Source: Nitrospirota bacterium
GTDB lineage: Bacteria; Nitrospirota; Thermodesulfovibrionia; UBA6902
Direction of reading: 5' to 3'
Length of the DNA stretch: 64,000 nucleotides
Assembly: GCA_003354025.1 (NCBI GenBank)
Contig: PIVU01000001.1
Location: 2,435-66,434, forward strand
Positions 20,211-59,612 of the stretch are shown one piece after another. Numbering within the stretch: position 1 is the stretch's first letter; every line of letters starts with the position of its first letter. The notes beneath the pieces are model-generated. The model made no database searches and had not been told where the DNA came from. It saw only the letters and a list, made by a program, of their open reading frames with translations. Made by a program: the position numbers and the translations under genes.

Positions 20211-21602
20211 ATGCAGCGTATATTAGTTATCGACGATGAAGAGTCAATCCGTGAACTGTTAGCTGATTTTCTCGAGAGTAAAGGCTATGAAGTCGTTACC
20301 ACTCATGACGGTAAATCAGGCCTTTCTCTGCTCAAAGAAGACAAGTTTGACCTATTCCTCCTTGATCTCATGATGCCGGGCATGAGCGGTCTTGATGTTC
20401 TCAGGGAAACTTCTTCTGAAAAAATCACAATTCCTTCAATAGTAATAACAGCCTTTGCCAGCGTACAGACTGCTGTTGAAGCTATGAAGTTCGGGGCTTT
20501 CGATTATATTACTAAACCCTTTGTACTTGAAGATGTTCATATTGCAATAAAAAGGGCGCTTGATGTATCAAGACTTCAGGAAGAGAATATTCGGCTGAAA
20601 AAAGAGCTAAAGAAAAAGTTCGGGTACCATAAAATTATAGGTAACTCCAAGCAGATACAGGATGTAATCAAGTTCATCGAAAAAATTGCCGACACCGACA
20701 GTACTGTACTGGTTACGGGTGAGAGCGGCACAGGAAAAGAACTTATATCAAAGACAATTCACTATAACAGCTCAAGGTCAAAAAAACCTTTTGTTCCGCT
20801 AAATTGTGCTGCAATACCCAGGGACATTCTGGAGTCGGAACTGTTCGGACACGAGAAAGGCGCATTTACCGGAGCTATCAGTACGAGGCTCGGCCGTTTT
20901 GAACTGGCCCATAACGGAACTCTTTTTTTGGATGAAATTGGAGAACTTGCTCCGTCTCTTCAGGTGAAGCTTCTCAGGGTACTGCAGGAGAAGGAGTTTG
21001 AAAGAGTCGGCGGCATAAAAACAATTAAAGTCGATGTCAGGATAGTAACAGCTACTAACAGGGACCTTGAGAAGGCGGTTAAGGAAGGCATGTTCAGAGA
21101 GGACCTTTATTACAGGCTGAATGTAATACCGCTGCATCTGCCTCCTTTGAGAAAAATGAAAGATGACATTCCTCTGCTGATTGAGCACTTTGTTAATGAT
21201 ATTGCAAAAAGAAAGAAAAGGGACGCCCCGAGGTTAAGTGCTGAAACATTGGACTGTCTTGGCAAATACAGGTGGCCCGGCAATGTCCGTGAACTTGAAA
21301 ACCTTATGGAGCGGCTTGTAATATTAAAAGAGGGGGACGATGTTCTTCCTGAAGACCTGCCGGAAAGATTACGTGAAAAACGCTATGATCATGACATATC
21401 TACAAAGAGCCAAAGGCTGTCTTCAGATGGCGTAGATCTAAACTCCATGCTTGATGATTTTGAGAATAATATGATTGTGCAGGCCCTTGAAATCTCGAAG
21501 GGTGTAAAGAGCAAGGCAGCAAATCTTCTGGGTCTCAACAGAACAACACTGATCGAGAAGATGAAAAAGAAAGCTATCGAATTTGATGGCGCAAAAAAAT
21601 AG
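20211..21602 (+). CDS. Sigma-54-dependent response regulator (REC, AAA+ sigma-54 activator domain and HTH), NtrC/FlrA-like.
   Basis: GESGTGKELISKTIHY, the GAFTGA loop (EKGAFTGA), and a C-terminal Fis-type HTH. Confidence 0.85.
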   Translation: MQRILVIDDEESIRELLADFLESKGYEVVTTHDGKSGLSLLKEDKFDLFLLDLMMPGMSGLDVLRETSSEKITIPSIVITAFASVQTAVEAMKFGAFDYITKPFVLEDVHIAIKRALDVSRLQEENIRLKKELKKKFGYHKIIGNSKQIQDVIKFIEKIADTDSTVLVTGESGTGKELISKTIHYNSSRSKKPFVPLNCAAIPRDILESELFGHEKGAFTGAISTRLGRFELAHNGTLFLDEIGELAPSLQVKLLRVLQEKEFERVGGIKTIKVDVRIVTATNRDLEKAVKEGMFREDLYYRLNVIPLHLPPLRKMKDDIPLLIEHFVNDIAKRKKRDAPRLSAETLDCLGKYRWPGNVRELENLMERLVILKEGDDVLPEDLPERLREKRYDHDISTKSQRLSSDGVDLNSMLDDFENNMIVQALEISKGVKSKAANLLGLNRTTLIEKMKKKAIEFDGAKK

Positions 21603-21687
21603 ACAGTTAATTGAACACATTCCTGAGTTATGTCATTATAATGACACTTTCCTGAACTAGAAATCATTAAAAAACAATACCTTCCGT

Positions 21688-21703
21688 TGGCATGCTTATT
21701 GCT
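21688..21703 (+). promoter_or_regulatory. Sigma-54 promoter upstream of the AMIN/TPR gene.
   Basis: TGGCATgcttaTTGCT. Confidence 0.65.
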
Positions 21704-21714
21704 TTTTCTACGGC

Positions 21715-24072
21715 ATGACCATTTATCGCAGGTTGATGCTAATAACTTTTCTGTGCATTGTTTCTATAGCAATCTCTGCGCAGGCTTCTATACAGGAAAG
21801 CAAAGAAACCCTGATCAAAGTGCGGGCATGGAACCACGCAAAATACCTGAGGATTGTTATGGAAGGGTCTCCTGACATTATTTCAAAAGGCAGCGTAAGC
21901 AAAAAAGGAAATGATGTACTCGTAGACTTTGCAGGTACTGAATTCTACATTGATAAAATAACATTACCCGTAGATTACAGACAGGACAACAACAATCTTA
22001 TATTCTCATTAAAACAACCTGCAACTCTTAAGACATTTTCATTAAAGAATCCCAGTCGTCTTGTAATAGACGTATATGAAAGTAAAAAAAATAATAGCAT
22101 CAAAAAAAATAAGAAGAAGAAAAGTATAAAAGTTACAAAGAAGGACATAAAGGAACCCGCACTGAAGAAAGAAAAAAAGAATAAAGTAGAGAAAAAAACA
22201 GAAGCCAAAAAAATTAATAAAAAAGATTCTTCCAGGAAAGAAAAACAATCCGGCAGTTCTGAGAAAAAGACAAAGGACAAAGTAATTGCAGGCAGCAAAA
22301 AAAATAAAATTGATGACAGCTTTGTCCCTGAGAAATATAAGGGACTATGGGGATTACTGCAGGCAGGCAACTTCTATACCGTATTAAAGGAGCTTCCGAA
22401 CTTCGAGCCCAAGGACGTAAAATCACTTGCAGCATATCACTATATGTACGGTGACGCTTACCGTACTGCACAGCAGAACATGGATGCCATTAAACACTTA
22501 AGGCTTGCATACCTTTATGCTGTGGATGAAAAATTAAAGGAAAGGGCCCTGTTTGAAAGGGCGGAACTGTACAAGAAAACCAGACTGCACTATGAGGCTA
22601 GAGCCAATTATCTTGTATTCATAAAAACATATTCATCATCGAGCAGATTGGCCCGTGCACATCTTGGCCTTGCTGAGACACTCTCTCAAATGGAGTTGTT
22701 CAAAGAGGCTGTTACACACTACAAAAAGGCAGGCAATGCCCCGGAAATATTGTTCAGTAAAGCCAATACGCTGCAGAGAATAGGGAAAGTATCAGAAGCC
22801 AGACGTGCTTATGCAGATGCACTTGCTGTTGATAGTAAGTATCCCTCGAGGTCCGCAGAAACTTACTTTTTTATTGGTGAAAATATGCGTATGCTGGGAG
22901 AATTAAATGAGGCCAAGAAGCATCTCAGGTCATTGAGTTATGGACCCTATCGCGATAATTCACGTTTAAGTCTCGGACACATTGCCCTGGAACAAAATGA
23001 GACCGCTGAAGCAATAACAAACTTTAAAGTAGCGACAAAATCTGACGATAGAAATGTAAAAATTGAGGGACTATTTCATATTTCAAGAGCATTCATGAAA
23101 GATGACCGTTTGGAAGAGGCTGTGGAAAGCCTTGAGACGATACGCAATAATTATATTAATTCGAGTTTATACAAAGATACGCTTCTTGATCTGGCAGTAC
23201 TTTACAGGAAAGCCGGACAACTTAAAAAATCTGTTTCTCTTCTTAAGGAACTGGTATATGGCAAGAAACCACCGAAAGAAGCCTTTAATGAGCTGGAGAG
23301 TATTATTCTTGATGCTGGTAAAAATGTAAAGGAAGGCTCCCCGGATAACATTGCATTTATAACGTTATGGAGAGAGGTCGGACAGTGGCTGATTGACGAA
23401 AGAAGAGCGGATTTTTTAATACAGGTAAGTGAGAAATTAAGGAGTGAGGGCCAGTCTTTCTTAACTCTCTCAACATGGCTTGTTGAGAATGCGCCAAAAA
23501 AAGTAAGGACCAGAGCTGCAATTGATCTTGCTGACTACTTTATTGGCATCGGAAATGTAGAGGAGACCCGTAAGTACATGGACATAGCAAAAAGGGCGGA
23601 TTCAAAAAGCGATGCTCTCCTGCGGGTGGAAGCAAAAGTCCTTTATTCAGATGGAGAATACAGAAGGGCCCTGGGGAAACTTATGTCAATTGGTAAGTTT
23701 GAGGCCCGCGATCTTGACCAGGTAGGTAACTTAATAACAAAACTGGGTACAGCCTCGGAAAGGCTGGAGGCTGTTGCTTTTTATGAGACTATTTTAAACA
23801 GTAATGACTGGGCAGCTGACAGTTATAACAGAATGGGCGACATACTATTAACCAATGATGAAAAGAGCAAAGCCCTTAAATATTACAAGATTGCACTAAA
23901 GAAAAGTCCTGAGGATGAATGGGCGGCATACAGGGTTGGGAATGACGGTGAAGCGCAGGAATCAAAAAAAATGTTTGACCAGTTGAAGACTTCCGATTCT
24001 ATGTTGGGCCGACTTGCCAGAACAAAAATAATGGAAATAGATCTTCTAAATAAAGTGAAAGAGGTGTACTAG
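21715..24072 (+). CDS. Secreted or periplasmic protein with an N-terminal AMIN-like domain, a Lys-rich low-complexity linker and a long TPR array.
   Basis: Signal peptide MTIYRRLMLITFLCIVSIAISAQA. N-terminal beta region ending in RLVIDVYE (AMIN-like). KKNKKKKSIK...KK linker. Multiple TPR-like helical repeats. Confidence 0.6.
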   Translation: MTIYRRLMLITFLCIVSIAISAQASIQESKETLIKVRAWNHAKYLRIVMEGSPDIISKGSVSKKGNDVLVDFAGTEFYIDKITLPVDYRQDNNNLIFSLKQPATLKTFSLKNPSRLVIDVYESKKNNSIKKNKKKKSIKVTKKDIKEPALKKEKKNKVEKKTEAKKINKKDSSRKEKQSGSSEKKTKDKVIAGSKKNKIDDSFVPEKYKGLWGLLQAGNFYTVLKELPNFEPKDVKSLAAYHYMYGDAYRTAQQNMDAIKHLRLAYLYAVDEKLKERALFERAELYKKTRLHYEARANYLVFIKTYSSSSRLARAHLGLAETLSQMELFKEAVTHYKKAGNAPEILFSKANTLQRIGKVSEARRAYADALAVDSKYPSRSAETYFFIGENMRMLGELNEAKKHLRSLSYGPYRDNSRLSLGHIALEQNETAEAITNFKVATKSDDRNVKIEGLFHISRAFMKDDRLEEAVESLETIRNNYINSSLYKDTLLDLAVLYRKAGQLKKSVSLLKELVYGKKPPKEAFNELESIILDAGKNVKEGSPDNIAFITLWREVGQWLIDERRADFLIQVSEKLRSEGQSFLTLSTWLVENAPKKVRTRAAIDLADYFIGIGNVEETRKYMDIAKRADSKSDALLRVEAKVLYSDGEYRRALGKLMSIGKFEARDLDQVGNLITKLGTASERLEAVAFYETILNSNDWAADSYNRMGDILLTNDEKSKALKYYKIALKKSPEDEWAAYRVGNDGEAQESKKMFDQLKTSDSMLGRLARTKIMEIDLLNKVKEVY

Positions 24073-25274
24073 TGGAACAGGTTTCCAAGTTGAATGAGGC
24101 GTTTCAGAATTTTACGGAAGCGTCAAAAAGTCTTGAAACATACTACGATAAATTGAGTGAAAGAGTTCAGTACCTTACCCATGAGCTAGAGAAAAAAAAT
24201 GAGCAGCTAAACGAGGCAATCCTGGAAGTTGGAGAGTCAAAGGACTATCTGCAGACTGTACTGCAGAGTATAGGTGAAGTAATAATCGTACTGGACCATG
24301 AAGAAAAAATAACTATGATAAACAAAGCGGCAGAAGACCTTATCGGTCTTGATCCCGCCACCGTCCGGGGAACACATTTCAATGATGTTGATATGGAAAT
24401 TGAAACGGGTAAATCAGGAAGCCAGTTAATGGCTCATGGGAAAAAACTGGATATTATCCTTTCCAGGTCCGAGGTGAATGACTCGGAAGGGACTACACGA
24501 GGGTACGTTGTACTAATAAAGGACATTACAAGAATCAAGGACCTTGAAAAACAGCATGAACGCAACCAGAGGCTGATATCCATGGGTGAGATGGCTGCAA
24601 CAATAGTTCATGAAATCAGGAGCCCTTTGTGCAGCATAGAGCTGTTTTCCAATATGCTATCAAAAGACCTTGAAGGTACAAATCACTCCGATATGGCTAA
24701 TGGGATTTCAACGGGAATCAAGAGCCTTAACAATATTCTGACTAACATGCTTTTCTTTGCAAAGCCGCAGAGGCCGTCCTTTATTAGTATCCGGCTAAGC
24801 GATTCAGTAAGTGAATCACTGAACATGCTTGCACCCCTCATTGATGTAAGGGGGATTAAAATTGCATCGACACTGTCTGATAAGACTGTTAATGGGGATA
24901 TTGAATTGCTGAAGCAGGTGTTTATGAATGTGATCCTTAATGCTGTACAGGCGATGCCAGGGGGAGGCAATCTTAGCATTAACATGGGTAAGGACGGCGA
25001 CTATGCAACAGTCGCCATTTCTGATGAAGGTGAAGGTATTAAAACGGAAATTATTGAAAAGATATTCGACCCGTTTTTCAGTACAAAAGACAAAGGGACA
25101 GGTCTCGGGCTGGCAATAGCTCATAAAATTATGCAGAGCCATGAAGGATTTATAAAAGCAAACAGAAACGAAACCGGGGGAAGCACGTTCTGTGTATATG
25201 TCCCGGAGATAAATAATGAAATCAATGAAGAAATACAAGAAAAAATATATGAAGAGACAGGGAAAATAACATGA
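24072..25274 (+). CDS. Cytoplasmic PAS sensor histidine kinase, FlgS/FlrB-like. GTG start.
   Basis: HisKA H-box (ATIVHEIRSPL) and HATPase_c G-boxes (DEGEGI, GTGLGLAIAHKI). No TM segment. Translationally coupled to the downstream sigma-54 regulator. Confidence 0.8.
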   Translation: MEQVSKLNEAFQNFTEASKSLETYYDKLSERVQYLTHELEKKNEQLNEAILEVGESKDYLQTVLQSIGEVIIVLDHEEKITMINKAAEDLIGLDPATVRGTHFNDVDMEIETGKSGSQLMAHGKKLDIILSRSEVNDSEGTTRGYVVLIKDITRIKDLEKQHERNQRLISMGEMAATIVHEIRSPLCSIELFSNMLSKDLEGTNHSDMANGISTGIKSLNNILTNMLFFAKPQRPSFISIRLSDSVSESLNMLAPLIDVRGIKIASTLSDKTVNGDIELLKQVFMNVILNAVQAMPGGGNLSINMGKDGDYATVAISDEGEGIKTEIIEKIFDPFFSTKDKGTGLGLAIAHKIMQSHEGFIKANRNETGGSTFCVYVPEINNEINEEIQEKIYEETGKIT

Positions 25275-26578
25275 AAGAAAATATGAAATCAATACTTGTT
25301 GTAGATGATGATGATCAGATGAGGGCTGCTTTAAAAGAGGCTGTTGTAAGAATGGGTTATAACGCTGTTCTTGCCGAGGACCCTGAAGACGCGCTTAGAG
25401 CGCTTAAGGGCGTTTCTGTATCAATGATTGTTACAGATATGAAAATGCCTAAGATGGACGGACTCGAATTTATAAAGGCGGTGAGAGAGAGAATTGGGAA
25501 CCTGCCAGTTCTTGTTATAACCGGACATGCCACTGTAGAAAATGCAGTTGAGGTTATGAAAGAAGGTGTGTGCGACTATCTGATGAAACCCTTTTCTTTT
25601 GACTCTCTAACTTCAACTATAGAATCAATAATGTCCAGGTCTACTCATAAGGGTAAGGAAATATTAACGGAAAACGAGAAGATGGAGAAACTTATACAAC
25701 TGGCCGGCAGCGTGGCAACTAGTGACATGACGGTCCTGATTACCGGGGAAAGCGGTACAGGAAAAGAGCTTCTGGCACGATATATCCAGAAATCAAGCCG
25801 TCGGAGAGAGAAACCATTTGTAGCAGTTAATTGTGCAGCTATTCCAGACAACCTTCTTGAGTCCGAACTGTTTGGATTTGAAAAGGGCTCGTTTACCGGG
25901 GCAAATGAAAAGAAGTCAGGCAAGTTTGAACATGCAAACGGAGGAACAATTCTTCTTGATGAAATTGGCGAAATGTCATCTACACTTCAGGCAAAGCTTT
26001 TAAGGGTTCTTCAGGAAAAGGAGATTGACCGAATAGGGGGCAAACATCCCATTCCAGTTGATGTCAGAGTCATTGCCACGACAAACAGAGACCTTCAGGA
26101 AGAAATAGAGGACGGTAATTTCCGTGAAGATCTCTATTTCAGGCTAAGTGTATTTCCTCTTCAGCTGCCTCCGTTAAGGGAGAGGCCGGAGGATATAAAG
26201 TACATTTCCGAGCATTATGTAAAAAAGTTCTCCCTTGAGCTTAATAAATCAGTCACAGGATTCACCGAGGATGCCATAGATTTTCTTACTACCAGGAAAT
26301 GGAAGGGGAATATCAGAGAGCTTGAAAATGCAGTTAACAGGGCTGTACTTATTGCCAGTTCCGATTTTATTGGTGTAGATGATTTCATGCTTGAGGGTGA
26401 TTCTGCACAAAGTCCTGTCAGCAACGGCAGCATAAAGGACATGGAAATGGACATGATCATGAAGACATTGGAGGATACAAACGGTAATAAAACCAAGGCC
26501 GCAAAGCTCCTCGGCGTCAGTGTAAGAACTATCCGTAATAAAATTAACGGATATGGGAAAAATTTGCCGGGTGTGTAA
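25271..26578 (+). CDS. Sigma-54-dependent response regulator, FlgR/FlrC-like.
   Basis: REC domain, ITGESGTGKELLARYIQ, EKGSFTGA, and a C-terminal HTH. Sits immediately upstream of flgB. Confidence 0.85.
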   Translation: MKENMKSILVVDDDDQMRAALKEAVVRMGYNAVLAEDPEDALRALKGVSVSMIVTDMKMPKMDGLEFIKAVRERIGNLPVLVITGHATVENAVEVMKEGVCDYLMKPFSFDSLTSTIESIMSRSTHKGKEILTENEKMEKLIQLAGSVATSDMTVLITGESGTGKELLARYIQKSSRRREKPFVAVNCAAIPDNLLESELFGFEKGSFTGANEKKSGKFEHANGGTILLDEIGEMSSTLQAKLLRVLQEKEIDRIGGKHPIPVDVRVIATTNRDLQEEIEDGNFREDLYFRLSVFPLQLPPLRERPEDIKYISEHYVKKFSLELNKSVTGFTEDAIDFLTTRKWKGNIRELENAVNRAVLIASSDFIGVDDFMLEGDSAQSPVSNGSIKDMEMDMIMKTLEDTNGNKTKAAKLLGVSVRTIRNKINGYGKNLPGV

Positions 26579-26791: not shown

Positions 26792-26806
26792 CTGGCATGA
26801 TTCTTG
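26792..26806 (+). promoter_or_regulatory. Possible sigma-54-like promoter for the flgB operon, with a variant -12 element.
   Basis: TGGCATgattcTTGT. The -12 element GC is replaced by GT. Confidence 0.3.
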
Positions 26807-26845
26807 TAAGTATATATAACAATATGAGAAACGGGAGATATGATA

Positions 26846-32537: not shown

Positions 32538-32970
32538 GATAAACACTATATCAAAAATCCTGAAACTAAAAGATGGCAAGAAACAGGAAATCGAGATCGA
32601 AGTTAAAAAGGCGGCAGACAGGCTTGAAGAAGAAAAAAATAAACTCAAGAATCTTCAGAGTGACTATCAGACAAAGCTAAAACAGTTTAATGAAAATAAT
32701 GAAAGCGGTGCGCTGAATATCAATAAAATCAACTCCTATTATGAATACTTCGCAATGATAGACGGGAAGATAAAGGAGCAGAAACAATTTCACTTAAAGC
32801 GTAAGAAAGAGCTGGAGGTCATAAGGGAGCACCTGATCGATGCTCATAAAGATAAAAAAATGATGGAAATTTTAAAAGATAAAGCTGTGAAAGAAAATAT
32901 GAAAGAAAGAGAATTGTCCGCACGGAAAGAGGCAGACTATCTTGTATTAGCGAGGAAATTAAGATGCTAA
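32530..32970 (+). CDS. fliJ: Flagellar export protein FliJ.
   Basis: 146-aa coiled-coil protein overlapping the fliI stop. Confidence 0.7.
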   Translation: MRKINTISKILKLKDGKKQEIEIEVKKAADRLEEEKNKLKNLQSDYQTKLKQFNENNESGALNINKINSYYEYFAMIDGKIKEQKQFHLKRKKELEVIREHLIDAHKDKKMMEILKDKAVKENMKERELSARKEADYLVLARKLRC

Positions 32971-33410
32971 AAAAGCTTATAGTAATGGCAGGCATATTAT
33001 TCATATCATTTAATGTATATGCTCAGAGCGATGATGCAAGCAAGATAGAACAGCAGAGCCGGGAACTGGAGCAGAAACAGGAAGTCATAAAGAAGGAAAC
33101 GGCCAGGCTTCAGACCCTGAAACAGGAAGTGGAAGCAGACATTGCCAAATATACGGACCTGCTTAAACAGATTGAAAAGTCACTGAAAGAAGCTGAAAAC
33201 AAAGGCAACAAAAGGCTAAAGCATGTTGCTAAAGCATATGAAGCCATGCAGCCCGAGGACGCTGCGTCAAGACTTGCAGGACTGGATGATAAAACGGCTG
33301 TGAAGATATTACTAAAGATGAGTAGCAAAAAAGCCGGACTCGTGATAGGGAATATGCAGCCTGCAAAAGCTACCACATTGACAAAGCAGCTTGCCAAGCT
33401 GAAAAAGTAA
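32964..33410 (+). CDS. FlbB/MotE-like flagellar protein with a signal peptide and an MgtE_N-like domain.
   Basis: Signal peptide, coiled coil, and a C-terminal EDAASRLAGLDDKTAVKILLKMSSKKAGLVIGNM motif. Confidence 0.45.
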   Translation: MLKKLIVMAGILFISFNVYAQSDDASKIEQQSRELEQKQEVIKKETARLQTLKQEVEADIAKYTDLLKQIEKSLKEAENKGNKRLKHVAKAYEAMQPEDAASRLAGLDDKTAVKILLKMSSKKAGLVIGNMQPAKATTLTKQLAKLKK

Positions 33411-33428
33411 CAAGTTAATTTGTATGAC

Positions 33429-33458
33429 CCCTTCCTGGTAGCGGGAAGGGGTTTTTTG
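33429..33458 (+). terminator. Rho-independent terminator ending the flgB...flbB operon.
   Basis: CCCCTTCC-loop-GGAAGGGG stem followed by TTTTTT. Confidence 0.75.
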
Positions 33459-33473: not shown

Positions 33474-33608
33474 GAACGTCCAACATCGAACATCGAACGT
33501 CCAACGTCGAATGAAAAACAAACATACAATACCGAACATTCAGCAATTACTCCTGTCTTTCTTTTTTTCATTCAACATTCAATGTTGGACGTTGGACGTT
33601 CGATGTTC
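33474..33608. repeat. Dyad-symmetric heptad-repeat array: five direct SAACRTC units, a 72-bp AT-rich spacer, and four inverted GAYGTTS units.
   Basis: GAACGTC CAACATC GAACATC GAACGTC CAACGTC ... AATGTTG GACGTTG GACGTTC GATGTTC, read directly from the sequence. Confidence 0.7.
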
Positions 33609-33737: not shown

Positions 33738-33752
33738 TGGCACGCCACTTGC
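33738..33752 (+). promoter_or_regulatory. Sigma-54 (-24/-12) promoter upstream of fliK.
   Basis: TGGCACgccacTTGC, an exact match to the GG-N10-GC consensus. Confidence 0.7.
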
Positions 33753-33764
33753 TTTATGTCGAGC

Positions 33765-35471
33765 ATGAACGTTTTCGGAACAAAGATGACAGCAGGCACC
33801 GAGTCACAGAAAATCAATCCTTTATTAGACCTGAACAAGATTGATATAAATGTAGGCGGAGGCTCCGGCTTTGATAAAGTCACCTTTGACTCACTCCTCA
33901 CCAGTCTGAAATCCGAAACCATTGACAGAAGTCCCGCCCCAAAAAATGATTATCATGCAGAGCAGGCAAAGAGAAATCAGGAGTATGCTGACAGGAATAA
34001 CTCAATTGGAAATAGAAGTGATGAGAAGCGGACTCAGGACAATAACAGGGACATTGAAAGGACTGACAAGACTGATGAGACGGGCAAGAGCAATGAATCA
34101 TACCGCGCAGAGACGGAGAGGCAAAAAACTAAATATGCAGATAGCAAGTCAAAATCGGATGAAAATGAAATAAGTACTGACTCCTCTGCAATTAATAAAG
34201 ATTCTGAGCAGTCCAATGAATCAAAAGAGAATGAGACATCTGAAGGCAATGCTGTCAAAATTGGTTCCCTCCTGTTTGAACTGGCAAATACTAAAACAGC
34301 AGAACTGACCAATGCCGCAGCAAACACTGAGGGCGCAGCAGCTGTAACAACAGATACAGAGCAGGAATCAGGTCAGGGTCTGAAAAACGGAGCATTACTT
34401 AATGAGCTGTTGAAAGGTAAAACTGATGAAACAGTAACGAACACATCAGCTAATGGAAAAGAGGCCCAGGGTCAGGCCGGATTGAAAGTCGGGGACTTGT
34501 TGAAGGACCTGGTTAATGCACAAGCTACTCAAGAAGGAAAAAACCAGGCAGAAGAAGCAAAAGGTGAAAATGCCAAGGCTATAAATACTGAAGCATTGAA
34601 AACAGAGAACGGTCTTAAAGTAGGAGAGCAGATTAAGACAACTGCTGATGTGAAAACCAATGGCATTGAGAAAGAACTGGCAAATGTTACGGCAAAGCAG
34701 ACTAATGCAGACAGCGAAATTACAGATACTGAAGTAGATGAATTGATTAAGAAGCTTGACAATAATGGTAATGCCGATAAAAAGTCTGATATTAAACAGG
34801 ACCAGGTTAAAGAACATAAACTGCAGGACTTTATGGCCCAGAAGGACACTCAGGAATCCAACAACGCAAAAGCCACAATCAGTAAAGTCCAGCCCGGAAT
34901 GGTTGAGAATTTATTCCGTGAAAGCGGAGTAAAGCCTAATGTTAACGCCACTGCAAAAACAGCCGGTGAAAATTCTGATACAAATAATATTAGTGCGTTA
35001 AGTGATGTCAGCGCAAAAAGCGGCGGTTCTAAAATTAATGCAGCATCTCCAACTGGAACTATTGCAAAGCCTTCAGGTTTTGCCGATGTTGTTAATAAGA
35101 TTGTATACGTAGCCAAGGGCGACAACAAACTGGGTGTAACTGTTGAGCATAAGGACCTCGGACAGCTCAATATAAAGCTGAGCCTTGAAAAAGGTGTTGT
35201 CAATGTCCACATTAACACGACTGATAAGGCTGCAAGAGAATTTGTTGAAAGCAATGTACAGCAGCTGGTCGACTCCCTCTCAAAGAACGGTGTCAGCATA
35301 GGAGGGTTCTCGGTAGGGTTAAAGAACCAGCAGCAGCATCAAGGGTTCTCAAATAATAATTCGAATAAAAACGATAAGGCTTTTTCCATTAATGGAATAG
35401 AGCAGCAGGAATATTCAAAGGCCGCCGCTAATGTCTATAGCAATAATGGCCGGGTGAGTGTATTCGCATAA
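33765..35471 (+). CDS. fliK: Flagellar hook-length control protein FliK. The start is uncertain: the ORF-track ATG at 33756 lies inside the -12 promoter element.
   Basis: Long, low-complexity acidic/Thr-rich N-terminus and a conserved C-terminal FliK domain (GVTVEHKDLGQLNIKLSLEKGVVNVHINT). Confidence 0.75.
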   Translation: MNVFGTKMTAGTESQKINPLLDLNKIDINVGGGSGFDKVTFDSLLTSLKSETIDRSPAPKNDYHAEQAKRNQEYADRNNSIGNRSDEKRTQDNNRDIERTDKTDETGKSNESYRAETERQKTKYADSKSKSDENEISTDSSAINKDSEQSNESKENETSEGNAVKIGSLLFELANTKTAELTNAAANTEGAAAVTTDTEQESGQGLKNGALLNELLKGKTDETVTNTSANGKEAQGQAGLKVGDLLKDLVNAQATQEGKNQAEEAKGENAKAINTEALKTENGLKVGEQIKTTADVKTNGIEKELANVTAKQTNADSEITDTEVDELIKKLDNNGNADKKSDIKQDQVKEHKLQDFMAQKDTQESNNAKATISKVQPGMVENLFRESGVKPNVNATAKTAGENSDTNNISALSDVSAKSGGSKINAASPTGTIAKPSGFADVVNKIVYVAKGDNKLGVTVEHKDLGQLNIKLSLEKGVVNVHINTTDKAAREFVESNVQQLVDSLSKNGVSIGGFSVGLKNQQQHQGFSNNNSNKNDKAFSINGIEQQEYSKAAANVYSNNGRVSVFA

Positions 35472-48622: not shown

Positions 48623-48871
48623 GATTATTTTTTATACCTCCCCTTTACTTATATTTGCTGGCCGACTGTCATTACTACAGCATTAAACATAGAGAAAGTC
48701 ATTTATTTGACGGGCGGACAATATGAAAAAACCAAATTATTTAAGCAGTTACGTTAGGCACGATATTTGTATATATAGCGGTGTTATTCGTTGAAGGTTA
48801 ATTGTTATTCGCAATGACAGAGGTAACGGAAACAGCTAACTTAAACGATCTTTAAAGGGAGGATAAGAGTA

Positions 48872-58557: not shown

Positions 58558-58584
58558 TTAAGGGAGGTGTTGCTATGCCGATAG
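58558..58584 (+). promoter_or_regulatory. Candidate sigma-28 promoter downstream of fliA, which would serve flgF.
   Basis: TTAAG-N15-GCCGATAG. The spacing and the -10 element are identical to the flgM promoter. Confidence 0.4.
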
Positions 58585-58742
58585 ACGGAATTAATAATTT
58601 GTTCAGGGTACCAACAATAAAAAAAGAACGGATGCCCGATGATGAGAAGAAAAAAAAGAGTAAAAAGAAATCGGATAACACAAAAAATGATGATAATAAA
58701 AAACAGGACAGGAAGGATGGACATATTGATATCAGAATATAG
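58575..58742 (+). CDS. Hypothetical 55-aa Lys/Asp-rich small protein. Very tentative.
   Basis: AGGGAGG sits 6 nt upstream of the ATG. The ORF is below the 60-aa track cut-off and overlaps the candidate sigma-28 promoter. Confidence 0.2.
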   Translation: MPIDGINNLFRVPTIKKERMPDDEKKKKSKKKSDNTKNDDNKKQDRKDGHIDIRI

Positions 58743-58882: not shown

Positions 58883-58898
58883 TGGCATTAAGATTGCA
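58883..58898 (+). promoter_or_regulatory. Sigma-54 promoter upstream of flgF.
   Basis: TGGCATtaagaTTGCA. Confidence 0.6.
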
Positions 58899-58910: not shown

Positions 58911-59612
58911 ATGAATAAAGGAATTTACATAGCGCTCTCAGGGGCAATACAAAAAGCCAGGCACATGGACATCTATGCCCAGAACATCGCAAATGTAAGC
59001 ACATCAGGTTACAAGCGCGGCAGGCTTTCATTTAAGGATCATATGGTCTCTTCAGATAACTCTAACAGTGCTGAGGTTAGGGGAAGGGTAATGACCGAAA
59101 AATCCAAAGAAATCACAGACTTCTCCCATGGCGTGCAGCAAAGGACCGGGAATCCCCTGGATGTTGCAATTAATGATAAAGGCTTTTTTGTACTCGAAGG
59201 AAACAAGTATACGAGAAATGGTAATTTTCATATTGACAGCGAAGGAACTCTAATGGATGCTAACGGAATGAAGGTCATGGGCGGTGGCGGAACTTTGACT
59301 GTCCAGGGCAGTAAAATTGACATAAGTCCTTCAGGAGAAATACTTGTTGATAATATATCGGTAGGATCATTGGATATAGTAGATTTTCCTGATAAAAATG
59401 TTCTCAAGAAAACTGACGGAGGTTTTTTTACCTCAGATGTGGAAGGTGAAGAGGTGAGTGCTGTTGTTAGCCAGGGTTTTCTGGAGAGGTCTAATGTAAA
59501 TGTAGTGAGAGAGCTTGTGGAGATGATACGCTCTGAAAGAGAGTTTGAGTCTTACCAGAAAATGATCCGCATTTTTGATGATGCGGCGGGTTCGTCGATC
59601 AGGGATCTGTAA
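58911..59612 (+). CDS. flgF: Flagellar basal-body rod protein of the FlgF/FlgG family, proximal rod.
   Basis: GIYIALSGAIQKARHMDIYAQNIANVSTSGYK N-terminus and a C-terminal rod motif. The start is taken at MNKG. Confidence 0.75.
   Translation: MNKGIYIALSGAIQKARHMDIYAQNIANVSTSGYKRGRLSFKDHMVSSDNSNSAEVRGRVMTEKSKEITDFSHGVQQRTGNPLDVAINDKGFFVLEGNKYTRNGNFHIDSEGTLMDANGMKVMGGGGTLTVQGSKIDISPSGEILVDNISVGSLDIVDFPDKNVLKKTDGGFFTSDVEGEEVSAVVSQGFLERSNVNVVRELVEMIRSEREFESYQKMIRIFDDAAGSSIRDL

Follow-up and report, generated by a model that had tools for sequence, protein, structure and literature searches.

Three sigma-54 promoters placed 13–14 nt before flagellar start codons in a Nitrospirota bacterium point to leaderless first cistrons

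Leaderless mRNAs have been described in Actinobacteria, Deinococcus-Thermus and Caulobacter and for lambda cI, where a sigma-70-type −10 box abuts the open reading frame (ORF), and they are usually ascribed to promoters of this −10 type. According to the usual definition, as cited in PMC12754779, a leaderless mRNA has a 5′ untranslated region (UTR) of ≤5 nt. Here we analyzed a 64-kb window (64,000 nt of contig PIVU01000001.1, from a Nitrospirota bacterium of the class Thermodesulfovibrionia), in which three sigma-54 promoters lie directly before the start codons of three flagellar genes: a gene for a protein with AMIN and TPR domains (the TPR gene), fliK and flgF. The arrangement shares with the sigma-70-type leaderless mRNAs a fixed short distance between promoter and start codon, a 5′ UTR that is absent (here by prediction), the lack of a Shine-Dalgarno (SD) sequence, an AUG or rarely GUG start codon, a first cistron as the leaderless one, and a geometry that is conserved across a clade (PMC12340547). 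In contrast to these mRNAs, the promoters in the window are of the −24/−12 sigma-54 type, which depends on an AAA+ activator and lacks a −10 box, and the arrangement appears, for the flagellar regions sampled, to belong to three flagellar operons only and not to be a genome-wide habit. An enhancer-dependent −24/−12 promoter appears here in the role that is usually given to the −10 type.

The locus also resembles the sigma-54 flagellar hierarchies of Vibrio, Pseudomonas, Campylobacter, Helicobacter, Caulobacter and the Geobacter type. As in these hierarchies, a master enhancer-binding protein (EBP) is followed by a histidine kinase and a FlrC/FlgR/FlbD-like EBP, and TGGCAC-N5-TTGC precedes the rod, hook and fliK operons. 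fliA and flgM, which govern the late flagellar genes in sigma-54 hierarchies, are both present in the locus. The difference lies in the leader: the deltaproteobacterial loci compared here carry the same genes behind SD-containing leaders of ~15–50 nt, whereas in Thermodesulfovibrionia the leader is predicted to be absent. No sigma-54 leaderless class is described in the open-access literature that we searched, although isolated precedents are possible. The comparison suggests a conserved pairing of sigma-54 transcription with leaderless translation, which is apparently undescribed.

Three canonical sigma-54 promoters

The window contains three canonical sigma-54 (−24/−12) promoters, all on the plus strand. 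The first, TGGCATGCTTATTGCT (21688–21703), has the C of its −12 element at 21702 and is followed by the ATG of the TPR gene at 21715, which gives a distance from the −12 C to the start codon (d) of 13 nt. The second, TGGCACGCCACTTGCT (33738–33753; −12 C at 33752), precedes the fliK ATG at 33765 with the same d of 13 nt, and the third, TGGCATTAAGATTGCA (58883–58898; −12 C at 58897), precedes the flgF ATG at 58911 with a d of 14 nt. The GG and GC dinucleotides inside TGGCAC-N5-TTGCW are 10 bp apart, as is characteristic of sigma-54 promoters. The consensus TGGCAYNNNNNTTGCW (TGGCAY-N5-TTGCW) has exactly three matches on the two strands of the window, all of them at these sites, against an expected number of 0.14, and none of 100 dinucleotide-preserving shuffles reached three. 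A weighted scan of the window likewise scores the three sites well above every other site. At a G+C content of ~42%, the probability of an ATG at offset 13 or 14 is by our arithmetic ~0.035 per site and ~4e-5 for three of three. The gene order places each promoter at the head of a co-directional flagellar operon, namely TPR-histidine kinase-EBP, fliK-flgD-flgE and flgF-flgG. A first-pass annotation of the sequence had described these promoters 13–14 nt before an ATG and had judged the geometry unlikely to be due to chance; the sites are exactly as it described them, and the number of matches and the repetition of the spacing in relatives bear out its judgement. The window does not contain rpoN, and scanning it for Rfam families and tRNAs gave no hit.

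The numbering of sigma-54 promoters by definition sets the GC dinucleotide's C at −12, which places +1 twelve nt downstream. In Caulobacter, 5′ rapid amplification of cDNA ends (5′-RACE) shows that the RpoN motif of spmX, GGCNC-N4-CTTGC, starts at −26, so that the C is at −13 (PMC4287350), and the sigma-54 motifs of Campylobacter jejuni end 8–13 nt upstream of the mapped starts (PMC3847290). The 5′ UTR predicted for the promoters studied here is 0–2 nt, and up to 4 nt at some flgF loci, which is within the definition of a leaderless mRNA. From the geometry and its conservation, we consider it likely, with a probability of roughly 0.78, that sigma-54 transcription starts at or 1–3 nt before the AUG and produces leaderless first cistrons. 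In this model, an activator-bound sigma-54 holoenzyme would open the promoter and initiate at or just before the AUG, and the ribosome and initiator tRNA would recognize the 5′-terminal AUG of the AMIN/TPR, FliK and FlgF messages with no SD pairing. The downstream cistrons would be translated from their own SD sequences or by coupling, as at the junctions taGTG (TPR/kinase) and ATGA (kinase/second activator). When the initial 50 nt of the predicted mRNAs are folded, the result does not differ from that for shuffled sequence and is uninformative.

Spacing and start codons in the relatives

To place the window in context, we compared the surroundings of fliF in 32 Nitrospirota and 48 deltaproteobacterial loci, those of flgF in 19 metagenomic loci, and 4 loci reached via FlgI homologues. 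The distance before the TPR gene is 13 nt (10 relatives) or 14 nt (13 relatives) in all 23 informative Thermodesulfovibrionia relatives. It is 13 or 14 nt before fliK in 9 of 9 relatives and 13–16 nt before flgF in the 14 closest relatives without exception. The only TPR locus that lacks the site (L028) has an assembly gap that covers the 5′ end of the gene, and the fliK site is present at every locus that has flgD in range, which indicates that the motif-based choice of loci did not bias these counts. TGGCA, TTGC and ATG carry 2 bits of information per position and the spacer 0.1–0.7 bits; at such a fixed distance, this indicates that the spacing is conserved and the spacer sequence is not. 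The base at −1 is a C in 21 of 24 TPR sites and in 10 of 10 fliK sites, so that the ATG has the pyrimidine (−1)/purine (+1) context that is typical of a transcription start site. The last three bases before the ATG tend to GGC at the TPR gene and fliK, while the flgF spacer is A/T-rich instead. Selection has thus kept the promoter in place with a tolerance of one nucleotide throughout a bacterial class. These comparative data strongly support the first-pass proposal of a recurrent leaderless arrangement in a subset of the sigma-54 flagellar genes, in which the leaderless state itself follows from the promoter geometry by inference.

The Campylobacter jejuni data would also allow transcription to start up to ~16 nt after the −12 C, that is, a few nt inside or after the ATG. 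The sigma-54 mRNA would then lack the first start codon and serve only the downstream SD-led cistrons, and expression of the first gene would rely on other transcripts. This is very unlikely, because it offers no reason for an in-frame ATG or GTG to be held at 13–14 nt in all relatives or for the pyrimidine/purine context to coincide with the ATG, and because no further promoter is evident for fliK downstream of the terminator (33426–33453).

The assigned start codons appear to be correct, as N-terminal conservation, the signal peptide, family models and independent gene calls agree. For FlgF, residue 1 aligns to position 1 of several NCBIfam models, and independent gene calls give a protein of 233–234 aa in four related contigs (L100–L103). 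Nucleotide conservation among the flgF relatives starts sharply at the ATG, and a start at the in-frame ATG further upstream (58824) would extend the protein by 29 residues that no homologue has. The TPR product begins with MTIYRRLMLITFLCIVSIAISAQA, a signal peptide with an RR n-region; this charged n-region requires the first ATG, and all 24 TPR orthologues begin at the equivalent codon at d=13/14 with the same signal-peptide pattern. fliK has in-frame ATGs at 33756, 33765 and 33786. The N-termini of the FliK orthologues follow the pattern M-x-[IVF]-[FL]-x-x-x-[MIL], with an ATG or GTG at d=13/14 in 10 of 10 genomes including the window. The triplet at 33756 (d=4) falls after the −12 element but before the predicted transcription start, and 4 of the 10 genomes have no start codon there; residue 8, the equivalent of 33786, is Ile or Leu in 4 of the 10. 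Since residue 8 can be Met, Ile or Leu while residues 1–7 keep the pattern, 33786, which the first-pass annotation had named as an alternative, is ruled out; we rejected both 33756 and 33786 and place the start at 33765. Gene finders that favor the longest ORF or an SD sequence would mis-call fliK at one of the two rejected codons.

These observations bear on the explanation that the geometry is coincidental or the starts are mis-assigned, with the true starts downstream behind ordinary short leaders. In-frame downstream ATGs do exist at 21736, 33786 and 58965, and the first fliK ATG in the ORF list is 33756. The downstream ATGs are not conserved, as the next in-frame ATG of the TPR gene ranges from codon 4 to beyond codon 20 and residue 8 of FliK varies as described; all of them lack an SD sequence, and a flgF start at 58965 would delete the conserved rod N-terminal domain. 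The chance of ~4e-5 applies to the window, and the pattern recurs at 46 of 46 informative sites in the relatives (TPR 23, fliK 9, flgF 14). The comparative data already contradict this explanation, which we regard as barely credible.

No SD core of ≥4 nt is found within 20 nt upstream of 21715, 33765 or 58911, and the 12–13 nt that would be available for one before the three ATGs fall within the promoter. By our count, an SD-like match of 4–7 nt precedes ~24 of the window's 28 other flagellar genes. Several non-flagellar genes have none, and SD sequences are missing at ~1/4 of the ORFs. The earlier statement that most genes of the locus have strong SD sequences is roughly right for the flagellar genes. 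All three genes are first cistrons, and the genes downstream of them have an SD sequence or a stop/start overlap; the kinase gene has AGAGGTG, flgD has GGTGGAGGG and flgG has AGGAGG.

Several points weigh against leaderless translation. ATG is the start codon of 46 of the 49 genes in the three families, and GTG that of the other 3; the latter occupy the conserved position in fliK of L006, fliK of L012 and the TPR gene of L012 (17818 in L006; 4143 and 15546 in L012). GTG is a poor leaderless start codon in E. coli, although GUG is tolerated in some phyla, and if the mRNAs of these two relatives are leaderless, a 5′-terminal GUG must function as a start codon in this lineage. A transcription start 12 nt after the C would leave leaders of 1–2 nt (≤4 nt at some flgF loci), which makes the mRNAs near-leaderless rather than strictly leaderless. 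The sampled regions are flagellar only. Finally, the search for terminators gave none before the TPR or flgF promoter, so that longer read-through transcripts may also exist.

Such transcripts are central to another explanation, which accepts the sigma-54 promoters as real but has most translation of the first cistrons take place on longer transcripts, by SD-independent initiation on an AU-rich leader (e.g. S1-mediated). The longer transcripts would arise by read-through from the upstream activator gene (EBP1) or the fliA operon, or from unrecognised promoters, and the closeness of promoter and ATG would reflect intergenic compaction only. The absence of a detected terminator between EBP1 and the TPR gene and between fliA/the small ORF and flgF is in its favor, as is the lack of SD sequences at about a quarter of the ORFs. 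A survey gives Thermodesulfovibrionia a value of 45 (PMC10783764); if this is the percentage of genes that have an SD sequence, as we take it to be, SD-independent initiation is common in the class. However, compaction leaves unexplained why d is 13–14 nt at 32 of 32 TPR and fliK loci of the relatives, on top of the two sites of the window, despite spacer drift, and why C(−1)/A(+1) is conserved. A strong terminator precedes fliK, and the outgroups have SD-containing leaders of 15–45 nt at the same genes. We consider translation mainly from longer transcripts unlikely and favor initiation on 5′-terminal AUGs of sigma-54 transcripts.

Leadered promoters and the reach of the arrangement

The same genes are found with leaders outside the clade of the window. 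flgF homologues at 52–53% identity have TGGAAC-N5-TTGC at 26–28 nt from the ATG with GAGG in between, and those at 41–44% identity have a distance of 29 nt with AAAGG. These leadered flgF promoters (L091, L093–L097) are like that of the window in that the gene is the same, the promoter is sigma-54 TGGAAC or TGGCAC-N5-TTGC and the protein begins with MYKGIYIA, but their d is 26–29 nt with GAGG or AAAGG, whereas it is 13–16 nt with no SD sequence in the clade of the window. Four of the leadered loci, L091 and L093–L095, come from marine metagenomes and combine a TGGAAC −24 element with an SD-bearing leader of 26–28 nt; they place the loss or gain of the leader between the flgF lineages at ~53% and ~57% identity to the window. 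In the deltaproteobacterial loci, the intergenic regions hold 123 matches to the sigma-54 consensus, whose d is broadly distributed with a mode of 25–39 nt; where d looks short, an SD-led ATG mostly follows further on, e.g. at fliK (ATGccagaggataaaATG). The leadered outgroups indicate that the leaderless geometry is lineage-specific and that a leadered state exists for the same genes elsewhere.

A contrast is also present inside the window. flgB is preceded by a sigma-54-like site with a non-canonical −12 element, TGGCATGATTCTTGTA (26793–26808, +), and then by a leader with the SD sequence GGGAG. fliL is preceded by the sigma-54-like site AGGCACGATATTTGTA (48756–48771, +), which has GT at −12, and by a leader of ~89 nt with the SD sequence GGGAGG. 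The −12 element at these two sites is TTGT or TTGA and not TTGC. Before flgB, TGGCAYG-N4-TTGA/T is kept in ~27 relatives (L001–L031) and is always followed by an SD-bearing leader of 25–45 nt. The consistent TTGA/TTGT in place of the near-invariant TTGC is unusual and may reflect an altered activator dependence of the early flagellar operon. Judged from the window by itself, the flgB site could also be a sigma-70 promoter (TTGCCT-17-TATATA); since the relatives conserve TGGCAY-N5-TTGA/T and not the hexamers, we interpret the site as sigma-54-like with an atypical −12 element.

We also considered a genome-wide habit of sigma-70 leaderless initiation. −10-like hexamers show no peak 5–8 nt before the first ATGs of 545 long ORFs of the Nitrospirota loci, in which SD cores peak at 5–9 nt, and we rejected such a habit on this ground, although the evidence is weak as the sample consists of flagellar neighbourhoods and includes orthologues. 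Together with the contrast at flgB and fliL, the lack of a −10 excess suggests, for this limited sample, that the arrangement belongs to the three canonical sigma-54 promoters.

If confirmed, the arrangement would be a natural test system for the precision with which sigma-54 polymerase selects its start site, and it offers a possible way to tie translation of a first cistron to one specific promoter. An ATG or GTG 13–14 nt after TTGC could serve as a rule for finding both start codons and members of the sigma-54 regulon in Nitrospirota. On a more speculative note, the first cistrons may have a low output relative to FlgE, FlgG and FlgD. A further idea, which we hold to be doubtful but possible, is that the 5′ end acts as a gate: as an internal AUG with no SD sequence is poorly translated, only transcripts started by sigma-54 would yield AMIN/TPR, FliK and FlgF, together with the coupled kinase and second activator, and this would apply class-wide and be undescribed. 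Checkpoint and low-copy proteins would in that case be made in strict dependence on activator-triggered initiation, and they would be insulated, again speculatively, from read-through transcripts and from 5′ UTR-binding regulators like CsrA.

Upstream elements, activators and neighboring genes

Sigma-54 promoters are expected to have an activator sequence ~70–200 bp upstream, with or without a DNA-bending site. Upstream of the TPR promoter lies a palindrome, GTCATTATAATGAC (21632–21645), with its center ~76 nt before the ATG. GTCAT-N4-ATGAC, which the window matches exactly, occurs at the same position upstream of the TPR gene in 24 genomes. Between palindrome and promoter is an A-tract or IHF-like block (21660–21687, +), and a block of the TTTAAAAATCA..AGTT type is conserved in the motif-anchored comparison of the 24 genomes. 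The palindrome is a candidate activator site of the TPR promoter, and the A-rich block may be a bending or IHF-like site. TATAAT inside the palindrome was rejected as a sigma-70 −10 box, because the four central bases vary and the GTCAT/ATGAC arms are conserved. A copy of GTCAT-N4-ATGAC with one mismatch is found at 48698–48711, before the fliL site. Its position of ~−78 is the same as at the TPR promoter, which suggests one activator for both promoters.

The region before fliK is organized differently. A predicted intrinsic terminator (33426–33453, +), with a 12-bp stem that contains 7 G-C pairs and is followed by TTTTTGTTG, stands after a gene with an MgtE_N domain (described below) and appears to isolate fliK from the upstream operon. 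Four copies of GTTGGACGTT, arranged as two inverted clusters at 33475–33600, 140–290 nt upstream of the fliK promoter, mark a candidate activator-binding region. The exact copies are at 33475–33484 and 33496–33505 on the minus strand and at 33584–33593 and 33591–33600 on the plus strand, so that the clusters are ~100 nt apart. No comparable upstream activator element was identified for the flgF promoter. These upstream elements, with their function inferred, fit enhancer-dependent promoters.

Two genes in the locus encode an enhancer-binding protein with an AAA+ Sigma54_activat domain. EBP1 (20211–21602, +) is an NtrC-type sigma-54 activator and a candidate master flagellar activator, with the Pfam domains Response_reg, Sigma54_activat and HTH_8 and with NtrC/AtoC/FlbD-like NCBIfam matches that are below the equivalog cut-offs. 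EBP2 (25271–26578, +) is a FlbD/FlgR/FlrC-like sigma-54 enhancer-binding response regulator, whose start overlaps the stop of the kinase gene (ATGA). We suggest that EBP1 may act on the TPR operon via GTCAT-N4-ATGAC and that EBP2 may act on fliK and flgF.

The window as a whole is a flagellar and chemotaxis region, and its best FliF match, 75% identical, is to a Thermodesulfovibrionia metagenome-assembled genome. Exact look-ups of the FlgM and FlgG proteins of the window gave no recorded entry. The gene order starts with EBP1, the TPR gene (21715–24072, +; Pfam TPR and AMIN), the histidine kinase gene (24072–25274, +) and EBP2. The GTG start of the kinase gene overlaps the TPR stop, and its translation is probably coupled to that of the TPR gene. 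flgBC-fliEFGHIJ, the MgtE_N gene and fliK-flgD-flgE follow, and then che genes on the minus strand; fliK (33765–35471, +) matches Pfam Flg_hook. The last part consists of fliLMNOPQR-flhBAFG-fliA, a 55-codon ORF, flgF-flgG-flgA-flgH-flgI, a gene for a rod-binding protein and flgM. flgF (58911–59612, +) matches Pfam Flg_bb_rod at residues 5–35.

The MgtE_N gene lies between fliJ and fliK (32964–33410), and its product has a weak match to FlbB, a spirochaete flagellar collar protein (NCBIfam NF047368, 39 bits, below the cut-off). The lysine-rich 55-codon ORF between fliA and flgF, MPIDGINNLFRVPTIKKERMPDDEKKKKSKKKSDNTKNDDNKKQDRKDGHIDIRI (58575–58742), has the strong SD sequence GGGAGGTG, and a gene of 55–56 aa with no Pfam match is called at the same place in L100–L103. 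In the relatives, csrA and fliW are present in the same cluster.

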